From Candidatus Latescibacterota bacterium (GTDB lineage Bacteria > Latescibacterota > UBA2968 > GCA-2709665), in assembly GCA_965219455.1 (NCBI GenBank), contig OZ244744.1, positions 1,728,001-1,792,000 of the forward strand: 64,000 nt of DNA, given 5' to 3'. The notes beneath the pieces were generated by a model. That model did no database searches, was not told where the DNA came from, and was given only the letters and a program-made list of their open reading frames with translations. The number at the start of each line of letters is the position of its first letter. Position 1 is the first letter of the stretch. Below, one piece after another: positions 3,597-59,986 of this stretch. The position numbers and the translations under genes were made by a program.

Positions 3597-5789
3597 TCAT
3601 GTTTTCAGGTGTTTACGCAAAAACGCAAAGGTGCCCACGCCGTTGATCGTATGGGGGCCGTTGAAGTACTCGATTTCGGTGCGGTCTTCCAGGCCCTGCA
3701 GTGCGTAGTGCCGATATGTTTTGGCGTATTCGTAGGCCACCCATTCGTCAGGGGCGACGCCGTCGTGGTGCCCGCGTTCGACCATGAAGGGACGGGGGCA
3801 GATCATCCAGGACATTTCCGCGTAGTTGAACGTATTGCCGAGGTTGAATTCGGGCATCTCATATTCACGGCTGAAAAGATAGCTGTACCTGTGCCGGGCC
3901 GAAGCGTTCTTCCAGATCCACTCGTTGAAGTCCGCCGAGCAGATGGAGAGACTGTATTGCTCAAGCAGGGCGGGAACCCGCATGGCCGTTTTGCCGCCGT
4001 AGCTGATACCATAAAAGCCGATGCGTTCCGCATCCACAAACGGCAGCGATGACAACCAGGCCAGCGTCTGCTCGTGCTGCCGGACAATGAAGGAAAAAAG
4101 CGAGAGTTTGAGCGGGTTGGCCTTGCGCTGAAGCACCCGATAGACATCTTGTCCGATGTAGGGATTCTGAGGAGCGTATGTGACAAAACCCTCTTTAGCA
4201 AGATCATATGCGAATTTTCTATAGGGATGTCGCGGGCCGTTCGGATCTACAATGGATTGGGGCCTGCCTTCCAACCCGTGCTGGCAGACCACGACGGGAC
4301 GTTTCTCGTCTTTTCGAATACATTTGGGAATCAGCAGGATACCGTAGGCAAAAACGTCGGGGTAGACGTCGAGCATTACCTCGTATGCAGTGGCCACGGG
4401 ATCGTCGTAAAACAGCCGGGTACGCGGGTTGGGAGGCAGCGAAACGGGTGGAAGTGGGCCGATAACGTCGTCCCAGAGCCGCCGGCGGTATTCCTTGAGC
4501 ATATCCGCATCGATGCTTGTATCGGATCCACCGGCTTCGACCCAGTATTCCGCCCGCCGGAATTCGGCGTCCCTCAGGGCGAACTGCGTGTGATCCAGGA
4601 GTTGATTGAACTGACGCCTGGAGCGGGCTTCCGGGGAGGCGCCGTCTCGAACACGGGAGGGCAAGCCCGTCGACGCGGGCGCAGATACGGACCCGCCGAG
4701 CCCATTCAGAAATGCTTCCAGCGTCGCGTCGGCGCCAGGTTTTCCGTCAGGGCTCCTGGTAAGTACCAACGAGCCGGCGTCTCCGCCGGCCAACTCGCAG
4801 GCGCGGTCGAACTCCGACCGGACGGTTTCTTCATCCGGCGTCGTCAGCCGACCCGGCGCGGCGGTTTGTCTTCGACCCTGGGCTTCCGGTGGTCCAGCGA
4901 TTTCGGGATGGTCCGCAATTTCCACAACGAGCGCGCGCGGGGCTATAAGAGATGCGATTTCAGCGTCGCCGAATGCACGGAGCAGGCCGAACAGATTTCG
5001 ATAGATGGGTTGGCGCCAGAGGTCTTCACGGGGTTGAAAATATCCGGAGACCGAAACCGCGCCGATGCGCGCGTCCAGTGCCGCGGCATAAAACGCGAGC
5101 AGCCCCCCCTCCCCGTGCCCGAACAGGCCGACCGGAAGCTCGTCGGAAACCAGTGCGTCGACTGCGGCGAGGATCTTCTGGATTTCGTATCCGATGATGT
5201 GACGGCCCAATTCGTACGCCGCACGGTAGATGAACTCCCGGTGCGGCTGGTTGGTCATACCGATATCCGTATGGCCCGAGTCGTCGCACCGACGATCCAT
5301 GAGGAGAGGAACAAGGACACGGCATCCGTTTTCGGCCAGGCGCCGGGCAACCTGGGCGGGTGCCGGTACGCCGGGTTGCAATCCGGCAATTTGCTCAGGC
5401 GTGAAATCGCAGTCTGGAAGGGCAATGACGTTGGCAACCGGCGGCCCGTCGGGCTGCAGCAGGAGGCCCTCGCCGTCGACACCCTTGAGCGCGGGCCAGA
5501 TGACTTCGAAGATCCGGTAGCCCTGACCCGAGGCCACTTCGGCCGGACCGTCCATAGGTGAAACGACCCGAATGGTTCCGCTTTCGCGGGAATCGATAAG
5601 GCCCAGCATCTCCGAGAGGCGCTGCCGGAGTGCTTCGTCCGACGCCGTATCTCGTTGAGAATCGCGGTCCTTGCGCGCGGATCGAGTCTCACGCATGAGG
5701 AATCGGTCCATACCCGCGACCATGGCGGCGGCCACGTCGCCCTCAATGTCGAGCCGTTTTGTTCCGGGCAATACGCTTTGGGATGTCAT
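3597..5789 (-). CDS. Tandem alpha/beta-hydrolase (dienelactone hydrolase / acetyl xylan esterase-like) protein
   Basis: Two nucleophile-elbow-like motifs GHGEGG and GISYGG; VVCQHGLEG. Confidence 0.8.
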   Translation of the reverse strand: MTSQSVLPGTKRLDIEGDVAAAMVAGMDRFLMRETRSARKDRDSQRDTASDEALRQRLSEMLGLIDSRESGTIRVVSPMDGPAEVASGQGYRIFEVIWPALKGVDGEGLLLQPDGPPVANVIALPDCDFTPEQIAGLQPGVPAPAQVARRLAENGCRVLVPLLMDRRCDDSGHTDIGMTNQPHREFIYRAAYELGRHIIGYEIQKILAAVDALVSDELPVGLFGHGEGGLLAFYAAALDARIGAVSVSGYFQPREDLWRQPIYRNLFGLLRAFGDAEIASLIAPRALVVEIADHPEIAGPPEAQGRRQTAAPGRLTTPDEETVRSEFDRACELAGGDAGSLVLTRSPDGKPGADATLEAFLNGLGGSVSAPASTGLPSRVRDGASPEARSRRQFNQLLDHTQFALRDAEFRRAEYWVEAGGSDTSIDADMLKEYRRRLWDDVIGPLPPVSLPPNPRTRLFYDDPVATAYEVMLDVYPDVFAYGILLIPKCIRKDEKRPVVVCQHGLEGRPQSIVDPNGPRHPYRKFAYDLAKEGFVTYAPQNPYIGQDVYRVLQRKANPLKLSLFSFIVRQHEQTLAWLSSLPFVDAERIGFYGISYGGKTAMRVPALLEQYSLSICSADFNEWIWKNASARHRYSYLFSREYEMPEFNLGNTFNYAEMSWMICPRPFMVERGHHDGVAPDEWVAYEYAKTYRHYALQGLEDRTEIEYFNGPHTINGVGTFAFLRKHLKT

Positions 5790-5884
5790 ATTTGGCCTCC
5801 CGGAATTTTAAGATCCCGGTTCGCAATCCGGATGCTTCCACAAGCTAACCCATGCCGTCCGCAATATCAACAGGCATCGACCGT

Positions 5885-7063
5885 TCAGGAGAGCAGTTCG
5901 CAAAGTTCGTCGCTCTCCCGGGTGATCTGTTCACTCCCGTTCTCCGAAATCACGAAAACGTCCTCCCACAGCATCTGAACGCCTTCCGCGGTCAACCCGG
6001 GCTCGGTGCTCAGGACCATCCCGGGCTCCAGCGGCGTCTGATCGTCCGGATGAATGCTCGGCGGCTCGGTAATCAGCATACCCTGCCCGTGGCCCATCCG
6101 GGAGGGTCCGAACCGGTCCATTCCATTCGTCCTTAAACACGCCTTGTGGATCGCTTCCATTCCTGCCCCGTAGATTTCGGAGCACCTCACGCCGGGGCCG
6201 AGGGCCGCCGCCATGGCGCGATTCACCTCCAGCAGTGCGCCGTGCATCCGTCTCAACGGTTCCGTCGCCCGGCCCAGGACGACCCACCGGGTATAGTCAA
6301 CCGTATACATGCCCACACGGGCGCCCGTATCCACACCGACGACCTGGCCTGCTTCCAGCGGCCTATCGCAACCGAACGGATTCCGCGATCCCGGAAGGCC
6401 CAGCAGCAACATGACAAACGAAGTCCCATCGCCGCCCTCTTCCAGAATCAGCCGCCGCAACAGGCGGGCGGTCGCCCGTTCCGTCATCCCGGGCCGAATC
6501 ATGCCGAACAGCCGCTGCCGGGCCCGGTCCGTCACTTCTCCCGCCTGCCGGATATATGCGAGTTCCTCCTTCGACTTCACCATCCGCAGTTGTAAGATCA
6601 CCTCCGCCGCGTCCACAAACGCGACATCGGACAATGCCCCCGTCAGGTCCTGATATGCCCCCACGGGCATTCCCATCCGCTGTTCCTGCCCCAATTCCAC
6701 ACCCACGGACCCGCAGGCCGCTCCCGCGTCCCGCAGCGCCTGGACTACGACCGCTTGCGGAAACTCGAACAACTCCCCGTACCCTCGCACATCGGTCACA
6801 TAGGAACCCAGCGCCAGATTGTCCTGTCCCTGTGTGACAACAATCGGCTCCCCGTCCCGGGGCAGGATAAAGACCGACGGTCGGGTCAGCGACGCGTGCA
6901 GGGCCACACTCGCCGCCGTCCCCGCGAAATACTGGAAATTCTCCTCGCCGGTAACAAACAGCACGTCCATCCCGCGCCGGTCCATCGCCACCCGCGCGCG
7001 GGCATACCTTCGCTCCATCTCCTCACGGGAGAACATCGCGTATTCGAGATCGTCGGATCTCAT
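5885..7063 (-). CDS. Xaa-Pro peptidase family (M24) protein
   Basis: Creatinase N-domain, LRMVKSKEE, D-TG, DYTR, GHGQGM, TEPG, EDV metal motifs; start refined to ATG 7063. Confidence 0.88.
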   Translation of the reverse strand: MRSDDLEYAMFSREEMERRYARARVAMDRRGMDVLFVTGEENFQYFAGTAASVALHASLTRPSVFILPRDGEPIVVTQGQDNLALGSYVTDVRGYGELFEFPQAVVVQALRDAGAACGSVGVELGQEQRMGMPVGAYQDLTGALSDVAFVDAAEVILQLRMVKSKEELAYIRQAGEVTDRARQRLFGMIRPGMTERATARLLRRLILEEGGDGTSFVMLLLGLPGSRNPFGCDRPLEAGQVVGVDTGARVGMYTVDYTRWVVLGRATEPLRRMHGALLEVNRAMAAALGPGVRCSEIYGAGMEAIHKACLRTNGMDRFGPSRMGHGQGMLITEPPSIHPDDQTPLEPGMVLSTEPGLTAEGVQMLWEDVFVISENGSEQITRESDELCELLS

Positions 7064-53329: not shown

Positions 53330-53791
53330 AGCGCGGCAGATGATTTTTCAAACGTAAAAAGCGAGTCTTGCAACCAGGCGGTAAATCGAACGTCGGTGGA
53401 AACGGATTGAACTAAGGACTCCGCACCGGATTCGATAGCGATTCACGCCGCCTTGATACCGCTCACTCATGCCTTTCCCGCCTCCCTGGTCTTACTACCC
53501 CCTCCTGCATCAAATCTCAGTTAATTCGATACTCCTGCATCCTGTCATCTCACGGGGCATAAAGCGCAGTGTCCATGCAGGACCGTACAAAGCGAACAGG
53601 AACTCGTTCAGAACGCTGAACGACTCAGGCTGCATTGGCAATCCCGTTCCGAAGCCAAAACCTCGCAAACCCTTCACTTACAGAACGACACCGAATATCT
53701 CACCCTGAAATCGGACAATGAAACCGTCTCGTTAACAAGGGGCACAGCGGGGTATGAGATACCGTTTTGTGAGCAGGTTTAACAGAGCACC

Positions 53792-53820
53792 TTGACATAA
53801 TGTATCGAATCCCCTAACTT
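53792..53820 (+). promoter_or_regulatory. Sigma70-type promoter
   Basis: TTGACA-17 bp-TAACTT upstream of the GWxTD gene. Confidence 0.55.
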
Positions 53821-53996
53821 TGTGTATAAATATCTCTTTAATTGAGTCGGCGTGCCCGGTCAATCTTGTGTTGGCGAAGGCAGGATTTGTAGTCTCGGCT
53901 AACGTGTTGGCGCTGGTCCAAGATCTGCCGAAGCAAGAAACGCTACCCGGTTTTTGTCGCCTCCTTTGCGTCCATAAATGCCAGGAAGGAAACGCG

Positions 53997-56900
53997 ATGA
54001 AGTGGATTACAACGACTCTACTGCTATGTGTATCCTGCGTTCTGGCAATACCGTGCCTCGTGGAGGCCGGGGATCGTGAGTTTCTCGCTGCTACGTCGCG
54101 GTTTCAGGACACGGCTTATGTTGTCGGACGCGGTGAGGGGCCAATTTCGTTAACGGAGATATGGGTCGTTTCCAGGGGCAACGATAGACCCGGAAAGCTC
54201 AAGACCTATCCCGGAGAACCCGGAACTCTGTTTTTCGATCCGGCTGGTGAATCCTTGATATATCTGGAACGAAGCTTACGAAATCAAGTCTGGGCATCTT
54301 ATTACTATGGCGGACAGTCTCTTCCAATTACAAGAAACGGGATATGGAAAATAAGCCTGGACGGCGCGGAAGAGGACTTGTGGCCGCTTCCGGTGGATTT
54401 TCAACCGAACGAAATTGCGCTATCTCCGGATGGACGCACATTGGCGATCATAGGATACAGGGGTAACTTTTTCGAGAGAATCAACAATGGCCTATGGGTA
54501 TCGGATAAGACGGGCGACATCAAGCTTCTGTTTGCCGGCAAAGTAACGACTCCGGTGTCGTGGTCGGATGATGGAACGTCTGTTACATGCAGAATTCACG
54601 ATGGATCGAAGACGATCCGTGTTCACGTCGCCACCGGAGAGATCATTCCGTCGCAAGCCACTGAAAGCAAGGCCAAAAACGATAAGCGAGACAGGGAATC
54701 CATTTCTACTGCGCCTTCTACTGCTGCTTTGGAGCAAACGGAATCTTCGGAAATCGTGCTGGGCATGATCGGTACTGGTCTCGACCTCTATATACGCGGC
54801 AAGAATGCGCTGCACAGAGGAAACGAAAAGAACGCGGTTGAAAAGTTCAAGAATGCCAGAAGTGCATTTAGACGCCTCTACGATAAAGCACGGAAATACG
54901 GCCTTTCCAGGAAGAGCTCCGAGAGATATATCGAAGCCTGTGAATTTTGGATCGACTCAAAGAAACACATGATAGAAACCGTCATATGTCAAGAGCATTT
55001 GGTCGGCATGCTGGGCTTGATACAGGAGTTTCAGCGAGTCCACGACAATAGGGATCCTTCGGATCTTGAAGAACTACATCAGTGGACGGTTCAAAAGAAG
55101 CTCGGAGGTTCACCAGCGGGAAACGAACGAAAAGACAAGATCTCGATCCTCGGCGTGGTGTTCTCCTGCCCGGCCAACCGGGAATACGCATTTCTCAGCG
55201 ATTATCTATATCAGCATGAAGGTTTGCCGGGTTCGCCTCCCGTGGCCTGTTTCTGGCACCGCGGCGAGCAGATCGACGGAGTCGCCGGCAACGACGGCGA
55301 CCGGACCACGGTTTCAAATATACAAGCGGCGAGAGTGGACAGCCTGGCGTCGAGCGGCCGTCGCGCGATGGACACGGATAAGTTGGATCGGGCACGGTTG
55401 ATCTTTCGGAACGTCGCGCGCCAGCGCCCGAGGGATCCCGATCCATATATCCATCTCGGTCACATTCTCTTGAAACTGAAACGATACGAGGAATCGAAGG
55501 AAGCGTTTCACCGAGCTCTGAGACTGGGAAGTAAGGCGGAGGCGCACTATGGTCTGGGAATGCTCTATAAGACATGGCCGATGCAGCGGCATTATGCCAT
55601 CCACCATTTCACGGAAGCGTTGATCAAAGATCGGAATTTTGTAGATGCGCGGTATCAGATGGCCAAAGTGCGTTATGAGATGAAAGAACGCGATGCCGAG
55701 CTGGAAGCAAAGAGAGTGTTGGAAATGGACCCCGAGCATGCCGGTGCTTATTTGCTGATTGCAGACTATTATTTGTACTTGTCCTGGGAATTCGAGAAGG
55801 CTGTTGTCTCGTATACAGAATACCTCGCGCTTCGCCCGGAAGATGCGGATGCGCAACGTAGCCTTGGAATTGCATACTTGAAAGTCAGAGATTATTCGAA
55901 GATTATGAACCACCTATTCGACTTCGTACAGAGGCATCCAGAGTCGATAGAACTGATGCCCATCGTTGCTATTTCTGCCATCAAGCAGGACAGTCTGGAT
56001 ATGGCAATGCGGTTCTTCGCGGATTACATTTCCAATCTTGATCCGGATAAACGAAGACTGTACGAAGATATAACGCAACTTGCATCTAGCGACGAACTAA
56101 AGGCCCTTGGCGAAACCGAGGGTTCCGACCGTGCAGGCTATTTGGAGCGCTACTGGAATTCCAGGGATCCGGATCTGTCAACGCCCGTTAACGAACGTCT
56201 GCTGGAACACTACAGAAGGGTCTGGTACGCGCTCACGGAGTTCTCAAAAAACCTGAAGCCCTGGGATGCACGAGGTGAAGTCTATATTCGGTTCGGAGAA
56301 CCCGACCATCGATCAAGATCGGACGAACCCAACTTCAAGCAGAGCCTGGAAGTTCAGCGGGTTAAGGAGCGACTCGCTTTCGATATCTACAAGGGCGACG
56401 TCGGGGCGCACACGTTTGTCGGACCCGTATACCCTGTACGTAGCCTCAAACAACTGGATGGCGCGTGGTATGAACTGAGTGACGTCAACATTGAGAACGC
56501 ATCGGCGTCGTCCGGTGGGGACGAGGCAGCCGATGTAGCCGCCGATGATCGGGGCGGTATCGTCGGCTCGGGGATTGAGGGACAAAGCACGTCTATTGAT
56601 GAAGGCGTAACGACGCCATCAGCAGCGCCTGATGACAATGTCCGTATAGGTATTTTGCCAACGGAGGAACGGCTGGGATTCGGCGACTATCATCCGGTTA
56701 CGGCAGGCGACGATCCGAGTACGGTGCCCTGGGAGACGTGGATCTATATTGACGCGGGAGGCGGAATCGAAATCACGTTTACAGACGAAATCGGTTCCGG
56801 AACATATGACTATGCCCCGATACCACCGAACCAGGGAGGAATTTCAATACGACGGACCGCTTCGTTGAGCACCCATTCTCCGCGTTCCGTCTACCAGCGA

Positions 56901-57761
56901 GCGACGTCGGTTACTCCCGATTTCTATGCCCCCGAAGACGATAGACCGCCTCTCGATTTCCACTATTCGCTGGCTGACTTTCGAGGAGGGAACAACCTCA
57001 GTCTGTTGGAAATTTACTATGGTGTTCCAGTGCTTCCAGGTCACTATATTTCAGAAGAAAACCTGACTCGGCAGGTTCTGACGCACCACGCCGCGCTCAT
57101 TTCATCCTCGCTTGACACGGTCTACCGGAAAACGAACGAGATGACCTACGTAGCTGAGGGCAACCGGGCCGGAGAGGGTCTACTTGTGCCGGACGTGCTG
57201 AAGTTGAACCTGCCACAGGGTACCTATCGTTTGGAGGTGAAATCGCAGGACCGCGTGAGAGGAAGAATGGGCATCTATCAGCAGCAGGTCGTCGTGGAGC
57301 CATATGGCGAGGAAGAATTGCAGATAAGCGACCTGGAATTGGCATGGCAGGTTGGCGCGGAACAGGCGGATAGCCGGTTCAGAAAGGGTGACCTGAACGT
57401 GGTCCCCATGCCTTCAAGAACGTACAAAAGGGGACACAGTGTATTCGTCTACTACGAAATCTACAATCTGTCGAAGGACGAATTCGGACAGACGAACTAC
57501 ATTGTCTCCTATACGATCACATCCAGAGACACACCGGGCAGGGTGGGCAACATCTCTCGCTTGTTCCGTTGGGGAACCGGCAGGAGGGAAGAATTGGCCG
57601 TAACGTACGAACAGCAGGGAGACTCTTCCCAGGAAGTGGAATACGTGGAACTGGCGCTTGACGAGCAACTTCCCGGTCGATATTCATTAAAGGTATCGAT
57701 CAACGAAAACAACAGCAGCGAGTCGGCGGAGAAAGACGTCGTCTTCGTCATTTCGCGATAG
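53997..57761 (+). CDS. Secreted multidomain GWxTD-family protein (TolB-like propeller, TPRs, GWxTD, C-terminal Ig-like domains)
   Basis: Signal peptide MKWITTTLLLCVSCVLAIPC; LSPDG/WSDDG repeats; TPRs; YWNSRDPDLSTPVNERLLEHYRRV..PWDARGEVYIRFGEPD. Confidence 0.82.
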   Translation: MKWITTTLLLCVSCVLAIPCLVEAGDREFLAATSRFQDTAYVVGRGEGPISLTEIWVVSRGNDRPGKLKTYPGEPGTLFFDPAGESLIYLERSLRNQVWASYYYGGQSLPITRNGIWKISLDGAEEDLWPLPVDFQPNEIALSPDGRTLAIIGYRGNFFERINNGLWVSDKTGDIKLLFAGKVTTPVSWSDDGTSVTCRIHDGSKTIRVHVATGEIIPSQATESKAKNDKRDRESISTAPSTAALEQTESSEIVLGMIGTGLDLYIRGKNALHRGNEKNAVEKFKNARSAFRRLYDKARKYGLSRKSSERYIEACEFWIDSKKHMIETVICQEHLVGMLGLIQEFQRVHDNRDPSDLEELHQWTVQKKLGGSPAGNERKDKISILGVVFSCPANREYAFLSDYLYQHEGLPGSPPVACFWHRGEQIDGVAGNDGDRTTVSNIQAARVDSLASSGRRAMDTDKLDRARLIFRNVARQRPRDPDPYIHLGHILLKLKRYEESKEAFHRALRLGSKAEAHYGLGMLYKTWPMQRHYAIHHFTEALIKDRNFVDARYQMAKVRYEMKERDAELEAKRVLEMDPEHAGAYLLIADYYLYLSWEFEKAVVSYTEYLALRPEDADAQRSLGIAYLKVRDYSKIMNHLFDFVQRHPESIELMPIVAISAIKQDSLDMAMRFFADYISNLDPDKRRLYEDITQLASSDELKALGETEGSDRAGYLERYWNSRDPDLSTPVNERLLEHYRRVWYALTEFSKNLKPWDARGEVYIRFGEPDHRSRSDEPNFKQSLEVQRVKERLAFDIYKGDVGAHTFVGPVYPVRSLKQLDGAWYELSDVNIENASASSGGDEAADVAADDRGGIVGSGIEGQSTSIDEGVTTPSAAPDDNVRIGILPTEERLGFGDYHPVTAGDDPSTVPWETWIYIDAGGGIEITFTDEIGSGTYDYAPIPPNQGGISIRRTASLSTHSPRSVYQRATSVTPDFYAPEDDRPPLDFHYSLADFRGGNNLSLLEIYYGVPVLPGHYISEENLTRQVLTHHAALISSSLDTVYRKTNEMTYVAEGNRAGEGLLVPDVLKLNLPQGTYRLEVKSQDRVRGRMGIYQQQVVVEPYGEEELQISDLELAWQVGAEQADSRFRKGDLNVVPMPSRTYKRGHSVFVYYEIYNLSKDEFGQTNYIVSYTITSRDTPGRVGNISRLFRWGTGRREELAVTYEQQGDSSQEVEYVELALDEQLPGRYSLKVSINENNSSESAEKDVVFVISR

Positions 57762-57888
57762 ACTTCCCGGCGTGTCGAAATATTGCGAGAAAACCTTCCC
57801 TCCGAGTTTAATGTAGTATATTGGGCGGAAATGAAGAGCCATCGGGTGAAATGGCTTCAAGTACCGAGCCCGTATCGACGAAAATCGT

Positions 57889-57917
57889 TTGACTCGCAAA
57901 GTACGATCAGGTACCTT
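57889..57917 (+). promoter_or_regulatory. Sigma70-type promoter of the SLATT-like gene
   Basis: TTGACT-17 bp-TACCTT. Confidence 0.5.
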
Positions 57918-57983
57918 CAGTTGAGAGGATGAAGCCCGCGTTTTGTCGTTGCGACGGGATGTAGTTGACTTCGGAGGTCCGCC

Positions 57984-58499
57984 ATGGTCAGTGACGCTAC
58001 TCGAAGGATGGCCTGGAATGAGTATCTGGATGTAGAGAGGGCGGCCAGATACTACGATGAACTTTCCCGTTATTATCGCAGGCGACACAATGCTATCATG
58101 ATAGGACTTGCGCTCTGCGCAATAGCCGGGGCTGGTCGCTTTATGTTTTCGGACTACATAGGTAGGCTGGCTGAAGTCATAGTAGATCTGGGCATTGTTG
58201 CAGTTAGTGTGCTTGGCCTACTTGGGAATCATGCAAGAAAATCCGCCAGTCTTCATGCGGTAAGCGTCATGTGTTTTGATTTGCAGGACAAACACAAAGC
58301 GTTGTGGTCGAAGATAGAAAACAACGCGATAGACAATAATGAAGCCTACGATATACTGATGGATCTTATTGAATCCGGCGAGAGGGCAACAAGCATTCCT
58401 GGTTGGGCAGATATCTCGGTAAATGACAAATTCAACATCAAAAGCCAAAGAGAAGCAGATAATTCACTGGTAGATCAATATTCAATCAGGGAGGCCTGA
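57984..58499 (+). CDS. SLATT-like 2TM membrane protein
   Basis: RYY...YRRRH preceding two hydrophobic helices, then a KSASLH helical region; GGAGG RBS; lower GC. Confidence 0.68.
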   Translation: MVSDATRRMAWNEYLDVERAARYYDELSRYYRRRHNAIMIGLALCAIAGAGRFMFSDYIGRLAEVIVDLGIVAVSVLGLLGNHARKSASLHAVSVMCFDLQDKHKALWSKIENNAIDNNEAYDILMDLIESGERATSIPGWADISVNDKFNIKSQREADNSLVDQYSIREA

Positions 58500-58663
58500 T
58501 GGGAGAAAGAGGCGGGCAAGAAAGAGCCATAAGACCCCCGCGTAATCCCGCAAGCCCGAGACCGGCACCGCCTCCAAGACCTGAAACTCCTCCACAGTCA
58601 CCACCCAGGCCACAATCACCGCCCGGACCACGAGAAAACAGCGGCACAAAGAAGCCGAGGTGA
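58499..58663 (+). CDS. Unannotated 54-aa Pro/Arg-rich peptide
   Basis: TGATG overlap with upstream stop, GGGAGG RBS; MGERGGQERAIRPPRNPASPRPAPPPRPETPPQSPPRPQSPPGPRENSGTKKPR. Confidence 0.62.
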   Translation: MGERGGQERAIRPPRNPASPRPAPPPRPETPPQSPPRPQSPPGPRENSGTKKPR

Positions 58664-58688
58664 AAACCTCGGCTTCTTTGTGCCGCTG
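58639..58688. terminator. Perfect 23-bp inverted repeat with GAAA loop between convergent genes
   Basis: CAGCGGCACAAAGAAGCCGAGGT-GAAA-ACCTCGGCTTCTTTGTGCCGCTG. Confidence 0.7.
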
Positions 58689-58709
58689 AAAGAAACGATC
58701 CAGCCACCT

Positions 58710-59201
58710 CTAACTCCACAAATCGGCAATCGCCTCGTCTATCGAAAACGCCTTCCCCGTGCTGGCCTGATTCTCCCGATGCAAAATCAACAGGGTCCAG
58801 CTTACTTCTTGAAGCAGGGCGCCATAGGCTTCGATATTTTCGTCCACCACTTTGAATTTTTCGTAAATGCCGGGATGGTGTTCCTTAAGTGTTTTTCCAA
58901 GGGTCTGCCAACTTCCTTTTCGCACCGTCTTCCCGGCTTCATCCAGGCCAGCGATTGCCCCCTCTACATCACCGTCGCGACACATAGATTTGTACTTTTC
59001 CGGGTTCTGTTCAAGCAGCTTCAGAAACTTATACCAATCAGCCATTGCATCCAGAACGGATTTATTGGTTGCTTCAAATTCTCGGTAAATTTCACCTATA
59101 ATTAAAAAGTGTGACAATGCATCCAAGTTTTTTTGCGCCGAACGATCTATAAGGGACGACAATTCTCCCGCAACAGGCACATCCATGACTGCTACGCCCA
59201 T
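58710..59201 (-). CDS. Hypothetical helical protein (163 aa), paralog of 32776..33270
   Basis: GGAG RBS, near-consensus promoter, shared motifs with 32776..33270. Confidence 0.72.
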   Translation of the reverse strand: MGVAVMDVPVAGELSSLIDRSAQKNLDALSHFLIIGEIYREFEATNKSVLDAMADWYKFLKLLEQNPEKYKSMCRDGDVEGAIAGLDEAGKTVRKGSWQTLGKTLKEHHPGIYEKFKVVDENIEAYGALLQEVSWTLLILHRENQASTGKAFSIDEAIADLWS

Positions 59202-59275
59202 GTCTCACTCCCTGTGGTTTCTTTCGCAAACGCATTTCTCCCACGATCCCAACTTCCCGGCAAGCATCTGCGAAA

Positions 59276-59304
59276 AGTATAGCTTAGAACATAGACCATG
59301 TCAA
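59276..59304 (-). promoter_or_regulatory. Near-consensus sigma70 promoter
   Basis: TTGACA-17 bp-TATACT on minus strand. Confidence 0.72.
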
Positions 59305-59485
59305 CTTAATAGATGTGGTTGTCTCATGCGCAGCAAGAAATCATCTTAGATTTGCATAATAATGGCACTTTATTAGAAGAATTATCTATTTTCTGCATAA
59401 TTTGAGCCGCCGGATACCTCTTCTGACCGCCCCGCGTTAACACTTCATTGAAGTCGACTGGAGTGCCGATTCGGCCATCGAGCGT

Positions 59486-59954
59486 TCAATCCGTGGTCAC
59501 GTTGAACAACGACGCCGCGTTATTCCAGAAGACGTCCTCCACCTGGCTGTCGGTGAGCCGCTCCGACCAGCACGCCCACTTCAGCGAGCGCAGTTGCTCC
59601 AGACCGACCAGCACCGGATCGACCCTGCCGTACTTCTCGCCCCAGACCGGCGTGTCTTCGTAGAGCCACAGGAACGAGTCCGCGGCGCACAACGATCTCC
59701 CACGCAGATGGCTTACGGGAAAGTCGGAACCGTACATCAGCTTCCGGTGTCCGAAGACGCGAATGATGCTCTGGTGCGCGATCGGCTCACAGTTGACACT
59801 GCAATCGAAATACAGATTCTCCAATCCCTCCAACTGCGCCAGACCCTCCAGATTGTGCGCTGGCTGAAACCCTGTCGGGCACGAACGATGCCAGTTCGCG
59901 CTGGAAAAACGCCACGTCCTCGTCACGCGCGTACCTGGTCAGATCCAGTGGCAC
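59486..59954 (-). pseudogene. Amidohydrolase family pseudogene with large internal deletion
   Basis: N-terminus VPLDLTRYARDEDVAFFQRELASFVPDRV joined out of frame to GFQPAHNLEG..NLYFDCS..KLMYGSDFP..VFWNNAASLF. Confidence 0.72.
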
Positions 59955-59986
59955 GTTCAGTCCTCTCTTCCGTGGCGGGCGCAGGC

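Follow-up and report, generated by a model that had tools for sequence, protein, structure and literature searches.

Positions 57889-58688 of the plus strand in a 64,000-nt stretch of Candidatus Latescibacterota contig OZ244744.1 (assembly GCA_965219455.1, contig positions 1,728,001 to 1,792,000; "the window" denotes this whole stretch) form a self-contained unit comprising, in order, a promoter-like site, the gene for a 171-aa membrane protein with two transmembrane (TM) segments, a small open reading frame (sORF) for a 54-aa Pro/Arg-rich peptide, and a hairpin terminator. On the comparative evidence from related loci, the sORF evolves as a protein-coding gene whose peptide is selected as a protein, and the 171-aa protein is, judged by its predicted fold and by transitive profile matches, a remote relative of the SLATT superfamily. 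The bicistronic unit is inherited at one variable chromosomal spot in a Latescibacterota lineage, and the gene pair stands alone there, without a gene for a signal-making enzyme in the flanks scanned. The functional reading favored here assigns the peptide to a standalone SLATT-type effector, as its partner or co-factor in the cytoplasm and not as an essential antidote, a proposal that we hold tentatively and with slightly less than even confidence.

The 171-aa gene (57984-58499, +) and the sORF (58499-58663, +) overlap in the sequence TGATG, where a single base is common to the TGA stop (58497-58499) and the ATG of the sORF (58499-58501). A Shine-Dalgarno (SD) sequence for the sORF, GGGAGG at 58489-58494 (+), lies within the final codons of the 171-aa gene and 4 nt upstream of that ATG. 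The peptide contains 18 Pro, 9 Arg, 2 Lys, and 4 Glu residues in 54 aa, for a net charge of +7, and has no hydrophobic stretch. A first-pass annotation of the window, made from the sequence alone without database searches, had described the two ORFs, their TGATG overlap, the GGGAGG SD, and the 18 Pro and 9 Arg residues, and our reading of the sequence and its ORFs agreed with it on each of these points.

A scan of genome contigs with a 10-sequence alignment (A3) yielded ten related loci (L001 to L010); the host organism is known from metagenome-assembled genomes (MAGs) only. Nine of the loci are orthologous, with 89-99% protein identity, and their records are labeled as Latescibacterota MAGs (seven), uncultured bacterium (one), and Gemmatimonadota (one). 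The tenth, L010, occurs in the same genome as L009, and its upstream protein is 43% identical. It is an old paralogous copy with matching anatomy, its elements being, in order, a TTGACA-type promoter, an SD, a 167-aa gene, a second SD (AAAGAGG), a 48-aa Pro-rich sORF, and a terminator; here the sORF is separate, starting 17 nt past the upstream stop with its own SD and terminator. The 171-aa ORF was full length and stop-free in all 11 copies, the window included. The first-pass annotation had named homologs lacking a downstream Pro-rich ORF as the outcome that would count against it; what we found was an intact Pro-rich sORF in six of the ten related loci (L001, L004, L006, L007, L009, and L010), as in the window, and a broken yet recognizable one in the remaining four (L002, L003, L005, and L008). 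The intact orthologous sORFs start with ATGATG or CTGATG across the upstream stop, and the SD is retained as GGGAGG or AGGAGG in nine of the ten orthologous sequences (the window plus L001 to L009), the exception being L008, where a degenerate SD (AAGGAAG) accompanies an 85-nt deletion in the sORF.

Codons were compared over a 38-codon core in nine orthologous sequences (the window, L001 to L007, and L009), with the broken sORFs of L002, L003, and L005 kept and L008 omitted for its deletion. In the sORF frame, the proportions of synonymous and nonsynonymous differences (pS and pN) were 0.395 and 0.074, respectively, and the ratio of nonsynonymous to synonymous rates (dN/dS) was 0.138, compared with 1.99 and 3.60 for the two alternative sense frames and 0.056 for the 171-aa gene (nine orthologues). 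Third codon positions accounted for 26 of the 42 variable columns of the sORF, and AGR/CGR switches at two Arg codons are synonymous in the sense sORF frame only. In the peptide alignment the segment ERAIRPPRNP was nearly invariant and 16 columns were invariant altogether; the RPP, PRP, and PPP motifs were kept, with PPP present in all seven intact peptides including that of the paralogue (one to three each). The intact peptides are 48-54 aa long and carry net charges of +2 to +7 with three to seven acidic residues, and their highest 19-residue hydropathy values range from -1.1 to -1.8, with no signal peptide. The L010 peptide aligned to the six intact peptides of the orthologous group (window included) with scores of 94-101, as against 60-67 ± 8 for composition-preserving shuffles, only 1-4 of 2000 of which attained its score. 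No RNA structure signal was detected over the sORF region (z = 0.17), and a scan of 57600-58900 with Rfam gave only sub-threshold hairpin look-alikes. With this codon signature, the overlap, and the L010 counterpart, the earlier claim of a real micropeptide coupled to the 171-aa gene was borne out.

The composition of the peptide does not by itself go beyond chance, and it is the comparative evidence that decides. The Pro fraction of the sORF (0.33) is the joint highest among the 523 ORFs of at least 40 aa in the window, but several others reach 0.25-0.33, and because off-frame Pro-rich ORFs are common in this GC-rich sequence, composition alone is insufficient. Scans of the peptide with Pfam, PADLOC, and NCBIfam gave no match, and a search with the peptide alignment against a collection of 5.8 billion proteins produced 835 word-sharing candidates, none at E ≤ 10, a blank to which the composition filter of HMMER may contribute and which fits the label "hidden" that the peptide had been given.

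Hydropathy placed two hydrophobic segments in the 171-aa protein, at residues 37-55 and 62-80. An exhaustive phmmer search returned 282 clusters of relatives at E ≤ 0.001; for 45 of these the E-value was 1e-10 or lower, and most were 160-180 aa long. A family alignment (A2) was assembled from the window protein and 101 of 156 collected proteins, all near full length and ranked up to P0122, after removal of rows that were nearly identical, truncated, or much longer. When these 102 members were scanned with Pfam (E ≤ 0.01), 13 matched SLATT_4 (best E-value 4.7e-6), seven SLATT_1, five DUF4231, and one SLATT_6, the others matching none; PADLOC matched 13 of the 102 to the "2TM effector" model (PDLC00696) of the cyclic-oligonucleotide-based antiphage signaling system (CBASS) and three to SLATT models associated with reverse transcriptases (RTs). 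The top look-alike in the protein Atlas (score 0.96) was a cluster with SLATT_4 on 19% of its members. An AlphaFold model (AF2, with A2 as input) had a predicted local distance difference test score (pLDDT) of 95.7 and a predicted template-modeling score (pTM) of 0.86, with helices at residues 4-54, 61-81, 83-112, 118-141, and 148-170; TM1 is continuous with a long helix at the N terminus, and TM2 is followed by a long helix beyond the membrane and by two more. In a Foldseek comparison with the viral library BFVD, 10 of the 30 best matches bore the name SLATT (probability 0.99-1.00, template-modeling score 0.45-0.68), at E-values of 2e-3 to 6e-2. Other searches added nothing: Foldseek against PDB gave no match at E ≤ 0.001 with poor and good models alike, the family profile reached a best E-value of 0.11 against PDB sequences, the NCBIfam scan of the 171-aa protein came nowhere near its cutoffs, and tblastn found no match for the window protein in plasmids and phages or for P0185, P0201, P0105, and P0114 in plasmids. 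One candidate relative, P0123 (1033 aa, seven matched stretches), proved to be a GBS Bsp-like repeat protein and its match spurious.

In size and layout the protein resembles the SLATT effectors with two TM helices (SLATT_1 to SLATT_6 and DUF4231; type I CBASS, DRT10/UG17, RADAR, and GAP1), which have a similar length of ~170-190 aa and share the arrangement of an N-terminal helix, a pair of TM helices, and a helical region at the C terminus; the weak profile matches of its relatives (SLATT_4, SLATT_1, DUF4231, and CBASS 2TM) and the fold matches named SLATT point the same way. The DRT10 work offers a precedent for the overlap: in its SLATT-RT pairs the stop of the SLATT gene overlaps the start of its partner, as in the window unit. 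SLATT proteins are described in the literature as predicted pore-forming, signal-responsive effectors whose activation is not understood. The window protein differs from them in having no direct match to a SLATT model, and the unit differs from SLATT conflict systems in having no adjacent CD-NTase, SLOG, RT, TIR, or GTPase gene, its sole conserved partner being the 48-54-aa Pro/Arg-rich peptide. Because direct profile matches and an adjacent signal enzyme are both lacking, we file the protein family as an unannotated remote branch of SLATT, and the unit as such a branch with a new kind of partner, distinct from CBASS, from DRT systems, and from toxin-antitoxin modules. The earlier description of a SLATT-like protein with two TM segments therefore stood at the level of superfamily and fold but not as a direct family assignment. 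No report of a SLATT protein with a proline-rich peptide partner was found in the literature searched, supplements lying outside that search.

The 32 flanking proteins scanned from the window and from L001 to L005, L007, and L010 included no CD-NTase/SMODS, SLOG, RT, TIR, or GTPase domain, and no signal-enzyme domain was detected in 10 further window proteins or in the immediate neighbors of the unit. These scans covered ORFs of at least 90 aa in chosen stretches, and the flanks of L006, L008, and L009 were judged by their DNA synteny with the window only. The statement of the first-pass annotation that no nucleotide-signal enzyme is adjacent thus held for the window and for the scanned flanks of seven related loci.

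The four broken sORFs differ in the nature of their lesions: a TGA at codon 9 in L002, a TAA at codon 8 in L005, a frameshift in L003 from an A-run that is 1 nt shorter directly after the ATG, and the 85-nt internal deletion in L008. On the tree of the 171-aa gene they occupy four terminal branches, each beside an intact sister. If disruptions fell uniformly per base, all four would strike the ~150-nt sORF and spare the 513-nt gene with P = 0.0026. Long-term conservation combined with repeated recent loss suggests that the peptide is a useful but dispensable component, and the repeated loss of the sORF next to an intact membrane gene argues against an essential antidote.

Under the reading that we favor, the 171-aa protein would be an inner-membrane protein whose Arg-rich N-terminal helix and acidic, helical C-terminal domain both lie on the cytoplasmic side, and by analogy with other SLATT proteins it would be able to permeabilize the membrane. 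The basic, non-hydrophobic, and probably extended peptide would be made in fixed proportion to it through termination-reinitiation at the TGATG and would bind the cytoplasmic domain as a dedicated partner, either as a co-factor or as a trigger-sensing adaptor required for the activity or control of the effector. Arg-rich segments lie on either side of the TM hairpin, and the net charge of the C-terminal domain is -6; we counted the opposite charges of this domain and the peptides (+2 to +7) in favor of a partnership. Because polyproline stalling is established, the conserved PPP may in addition make peptide output dependent on elongation factor P (EF-P).

Several results weigh against this reading. 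At E ≤ 1, the Pfam scan of the 171-aa protein itself returned no SLATT family, its best match being Invas_SpaK (E = 0.0017, below the family cutoff); the PADLOC scan of the protein gave zero matches; 89 of the 102 A2 members had no SLATT_4 match; a precomputed Pfam domain was present in none of the 99 proteins from the profile search; and Foldseek gave no match at E ≤ 0.001 in any library, the best value being 2e-3. For the peptide, the antisense mirror frame, which reads Gly for Pro, has a dN/dS of 0.215, so that dN/dS alone does not separate the frames; a low value is expected there, Pro and Gly codons being four-fold degenerate on both strands. The DNA downstream of the gene was read in ten loci of one lineage (nine orthologues and one paralogue), set against ~280 other clusters of relatives. 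Finally, the four broken sORFs could mean either that the peptide is dispensable or that the assemblies contain errors, and MAG assembly error may have caused these breaks, above all the homopolymer change in L003.

The first-pass annotation had proposed that the peptide plugs the pore, in which case the 171-aa protein would be a constitutively toxic pore and the peptide the antidote that neutralizes it. The compact, autonomous unit with overlapping genes, its own promoter and terminator, and a location in a variable patch does resemble a two-gene toxin-antitoxin module; SLATT proteins are predicted pore-forming toxins, and a basic peptide facing an acidic cytoplasmic domain offers the opposite charges that such a pair might use. 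Loss of an essential antidote, however, should kill the cell or go together with decay of the toxin, and instead the sORF was disrupted four times independently beside a 171-aa ORF that stayed intact in 11 of 11 copies under strong purifying selection, so that the small gene was repeatedly lost and the presumed toxin retained. The small protein, moreover, has no fold or DNA-binding domain and no family match. In type II pairs the antitoxin gene usually comes first, and here the peptide gene lies downstream of the presumed toxin. The proposal was not supported, and we consider a toxin-antitoxin pair improbable.

We give a similarly low probability to the possibility that translation of the polyproline sORF, and not the peptide, is what matters, with EF-P-dependent passage through PPP deciding terminator hairpin formation or mRNA life and thereby tuning the membrane protein gene or read-through into the convergent gene. 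There are precedents: EF-P keeps ribosomes coupled to RNA polymerase so that terminator hairpins are prevented (PMC5021804), and leader ORFs with Pro codons sense EF-P at the Salmonella mgt genes (PMC5299641). Like mgtP and related leaders, the unit has a short ORF, consecutive Pro codons, and an adjacent terminator hairpin; PPP occurs in every intact peptide, the paralogue's included, and the sORF stop lies a few nucleotides from the terminator stem or inside it. Unlike those leaders, however, the sORF is downstream of the gene that it would have to regulate, no plus-strand gene follows the terminator, and the whole peptide sequence is under purifying selection, not the Pro run alone, as evidenced by the conserved non-Pro residues (ERAIRPPRNP, 16 invariant columns, dN/dS of 0.14). 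In addition, L001 has no hairpin, yet its sORF is intact.

Rather less probable still is that the effector role belongs to the peptide, which would target the ribosome tunnel or DnaK in the manner of proline-rich antimicrobial peptides (PrAMPs), with the membrane protein serving as conduit, immunity, or release factor. By description, the peptide is like the animal PrAMPs of the oncocin, Bac7, and apidaecin type in its Pro and Arg content (33% and 17%, respectively), its PRP and RPP motifs, its similar length, and the lack of a hydrophobic core, and loss of the peptide with retention of its partner resembles the situation of orphan immunity genes. The PrAMP likeness is nevertheless compositional only: the peptide is bacterial and predicted to be cytoplasmic, with no signal peptide, pro-region, or hydrophobic stretch; it contains Ser, Thr, and Gln together with three to seven acidic residues, so that the net charge falls to +2 in some orthologues; and no export, maturation, or immunity genes were conserved nearby in the scanned flanks.

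Very improbable, finally, is that the sORF is no gene at all, whether a frame left open by chance in C-rich 3' untranslated sequence or the mirror of a real antisense Gly-rich gene, a view to which the abundance of off-frame Pro-rich ORFs in the window, the absence of the peptide from the protein collection, the breakage in four of ten loci, and the antisense dN/dS of 0.215 lend something, but against which stand the third-position bias (26 of 42 variable columns) with AGR/CGR switches silent in the sense frame only, an SD and ATG(ATG) conserved in nine of ten orthologous sequences including the window, an L010 sORF with its own SD that is similar beyond composition, the lack of an RNA structure signal over the sORF, and an antisense frame that has no conserved start and is interrupted by stops, those of L002, L004, and L007 falling in the loop of the hairpin and that of L010 being internal.

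The partner reading could have a wider form, in which standalone SLATT pore proteins across many phyla (282 clusters of relatives) carry an unannotated, translationally coupled Pro/Arg micropeptide as their only partner and make up a minimal suicide or defense module. EF-P-dependent translation would then set the peptide-to-pore ratio, a translation block such as that imposed by a phage would release or arm the pore, and the peptide would take the place of the CBASS-type second messenger. We regard this generalization as a long shot. Among 243 collected family proteins, two have Pro-rich C-terminal tails: P0105 (231 aa, full length), which has weak SLATT_1 and DUF4231 matches, and P0114 (155 aa), in which a family match over 107 residues is followed by a Met-initiated, Lys-rich polyproline tail. 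These tails, which we also count in favor of the partner reading itself, hint, at the level of sequence, that the pairing of membrane protein and peptide reaches beyond the Latescibacterota lineage.

SLATT proteins rank with the most common effectors predicted for bacterial immune systems, and the DRT10 preprint treats the mechanism that switches them on as open. The described SLATT cases all pair with a signal-making enzyme; here, a distant SLATT-like family occurs without one. If the pairing is general, the unit would be the simplest known system in which to study SLATT gating, and its peptide a functional micropeptide overlooked by every gene caller, whereas if the peptide is dispensable or the membrane protein inert, the sORF would be an ordinary lineage-specific small gene. 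The case also shows that small ORFs of uncultured phyla can be recovered by comparing codons among related loci.

The promoter-like site consists of TTGACT (57889-57894, +), a 17-nt spacer, and TACCTT (57912-57917, +). TTGACT was unchanged in all ten aligned upstream regions, and the hexamer 17 nt after it was TACCTT in seven of the ten, TACTTT in two, and divergent in L003. In L006, L007, and L008 the block shared with the window begins at 57889 exactly. A generic sigma-70 promoter scan did not flag the site, so that the earlier claim of an own promoter found no backing from that scan but did find it in the invariance of TTGACT. The SD of the 171-aa gene, GGAGG at 57973-57977 (+), was read from the sequence 6 nt upstream of its ATG, and its GGAG was unchanged across the 10-locus upstream alignment. 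The unit had also been described as lower in GC content; this applies to the 171-aa gene (0.462, against 0.59 for the window) but not to the sORF, whose overall GC of 0.611 is high because of its Pro and Arg codons, even though its GC at third codon positions (0.426) agrees with that of the 171-aa gene (0.468) and not with that of the neighboring 1313-aa gene (0.583). Within the sORF, an 18-nt tandem repeat at 58592-58631 (+; 2.2 copies, Tandem Repeats Finder score 52) encodes PQSPP(R/G).

The hairpin terminator (58639-58688) has arms at 58639-58661 and 58666-58688, which form a 23-bp perfect stem with a 4-nt loop tip. Its folding energy of -51.3 kcal/mol (z = -10.3) was equaled by none of 200 shuffles, in keeping with the hairpin end that had been described, and an inverted-repeat search of the 64 kb reported nine pairs, the remaining eight of which were imperfect overlapping palindromes. 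A terminator scan scored the hairpin as a terminator for the minus strand, and it probably serves both strands. The stop of the sORF (58661-58663) falls within the hairpin loop in the window only; elsewhere it lies just 5' of the stem. A terminator hairpin was present in nine of the ten related loci, all but L001, that of L010 being unrelated in sequence, and L006 to L009 have a shorter GCCGAGG stem followed by T6-7. The hairpins of L002 to L009 lie at about 5650-5700 of their loci (about 4605-4650 in L006). The loop occurs in either orientation: the window, L005, L006, and L009 have TGAAAA, and L002, L004, and L007 have TTTTCA. Since even the sister loci L004 and L005 differ in this respect, the loop has flipped repeatedly between the arms. 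The window stem has been enlarged from about 12-16 bp to 23 perfect bp, a growth that removed the ancestral stop and left the peptide 5-6 residues longer.

The unit sits within a small variable patch (about 53350-59980 of the window) of an otherwise syntenic chromosome. Upstream in the window lies a 1313-aa TPR/GWxTD gene (53820-57761) that is missing from L004 to L009, and at the same spot other genomes have a ParA-like AAA_31 gene with a 175-aa ORF, a zeta-toxin-like AAA_33 gene with DUF5677, or Kelch proteins. Across the loci the flanking genes encode a K+ channel, dehydrogenases, PhyH, an alpha/beta hydrolase, Kelch proteins, a ParA-like ATPase, a zeta-toxin-like kinase with DUF5677, a patatin-like protein, and an IS1595 transposase. 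The ParA-like gene of L004 and L005 was considered as a partner, because it is reminiscent of PCTM systems with SLATT effectors, and was rejected: it is on the opposite strand and occurs at two loci only. In L003 the promoter-gene-sORF-hairpin block (4850-5699) is the sole match to the window in a 10.5-kb locus, with an amidase, RNase PH, Ham1, and a patatin-like protein as neighbors; the context is wholly different, so either the unit has changed place or other DNA has replaced what surrounded it.

Past the terminator there is no gene on the plus strand. A convergent 163-aa ORF (58710-59201, -; GC 0.474) has the hairpin in common with the unit and gave no Pfam, NCBIfam, PADLOC, or usable Atlas match; it stands beside the unit in the window, L006, L008, and L009 only, lies behind an insert in L002, and is represented by fragments in L004. 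The insert in L002 (~410 bp, 5696-6105) separates the hairpin from the 163-aa gene, and the match to the window resumes in the right arm at 58671. In L001 (5655-5739), the end of the intact sORF is joined directly to window position 59789, so that the hairpin, the 163-aa gene, and about 1.1 kb are missing. In L007 the conserved block stops within the hairpin, at about 58682; in L006 it runs on as far as the 163-aa gene, and in L008 the 85-nt deletion breaks it. The latter locus, labeled Gemmatimonadota, has its gene order and ~80% DNA identity in common with the window and with the records labeled Latescibacterota, and its gene nests in the Latescibacterota-labeled tree, so that the phylum labels of the records disagree. 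In the 5' leader of the 171-aa gene (57940-57965), a small stem varies on both sides, being GTCG...CGAC in the window and TCAC...GTGA in L004 and L005 as read by eye, and it may be a conserved hairpin.

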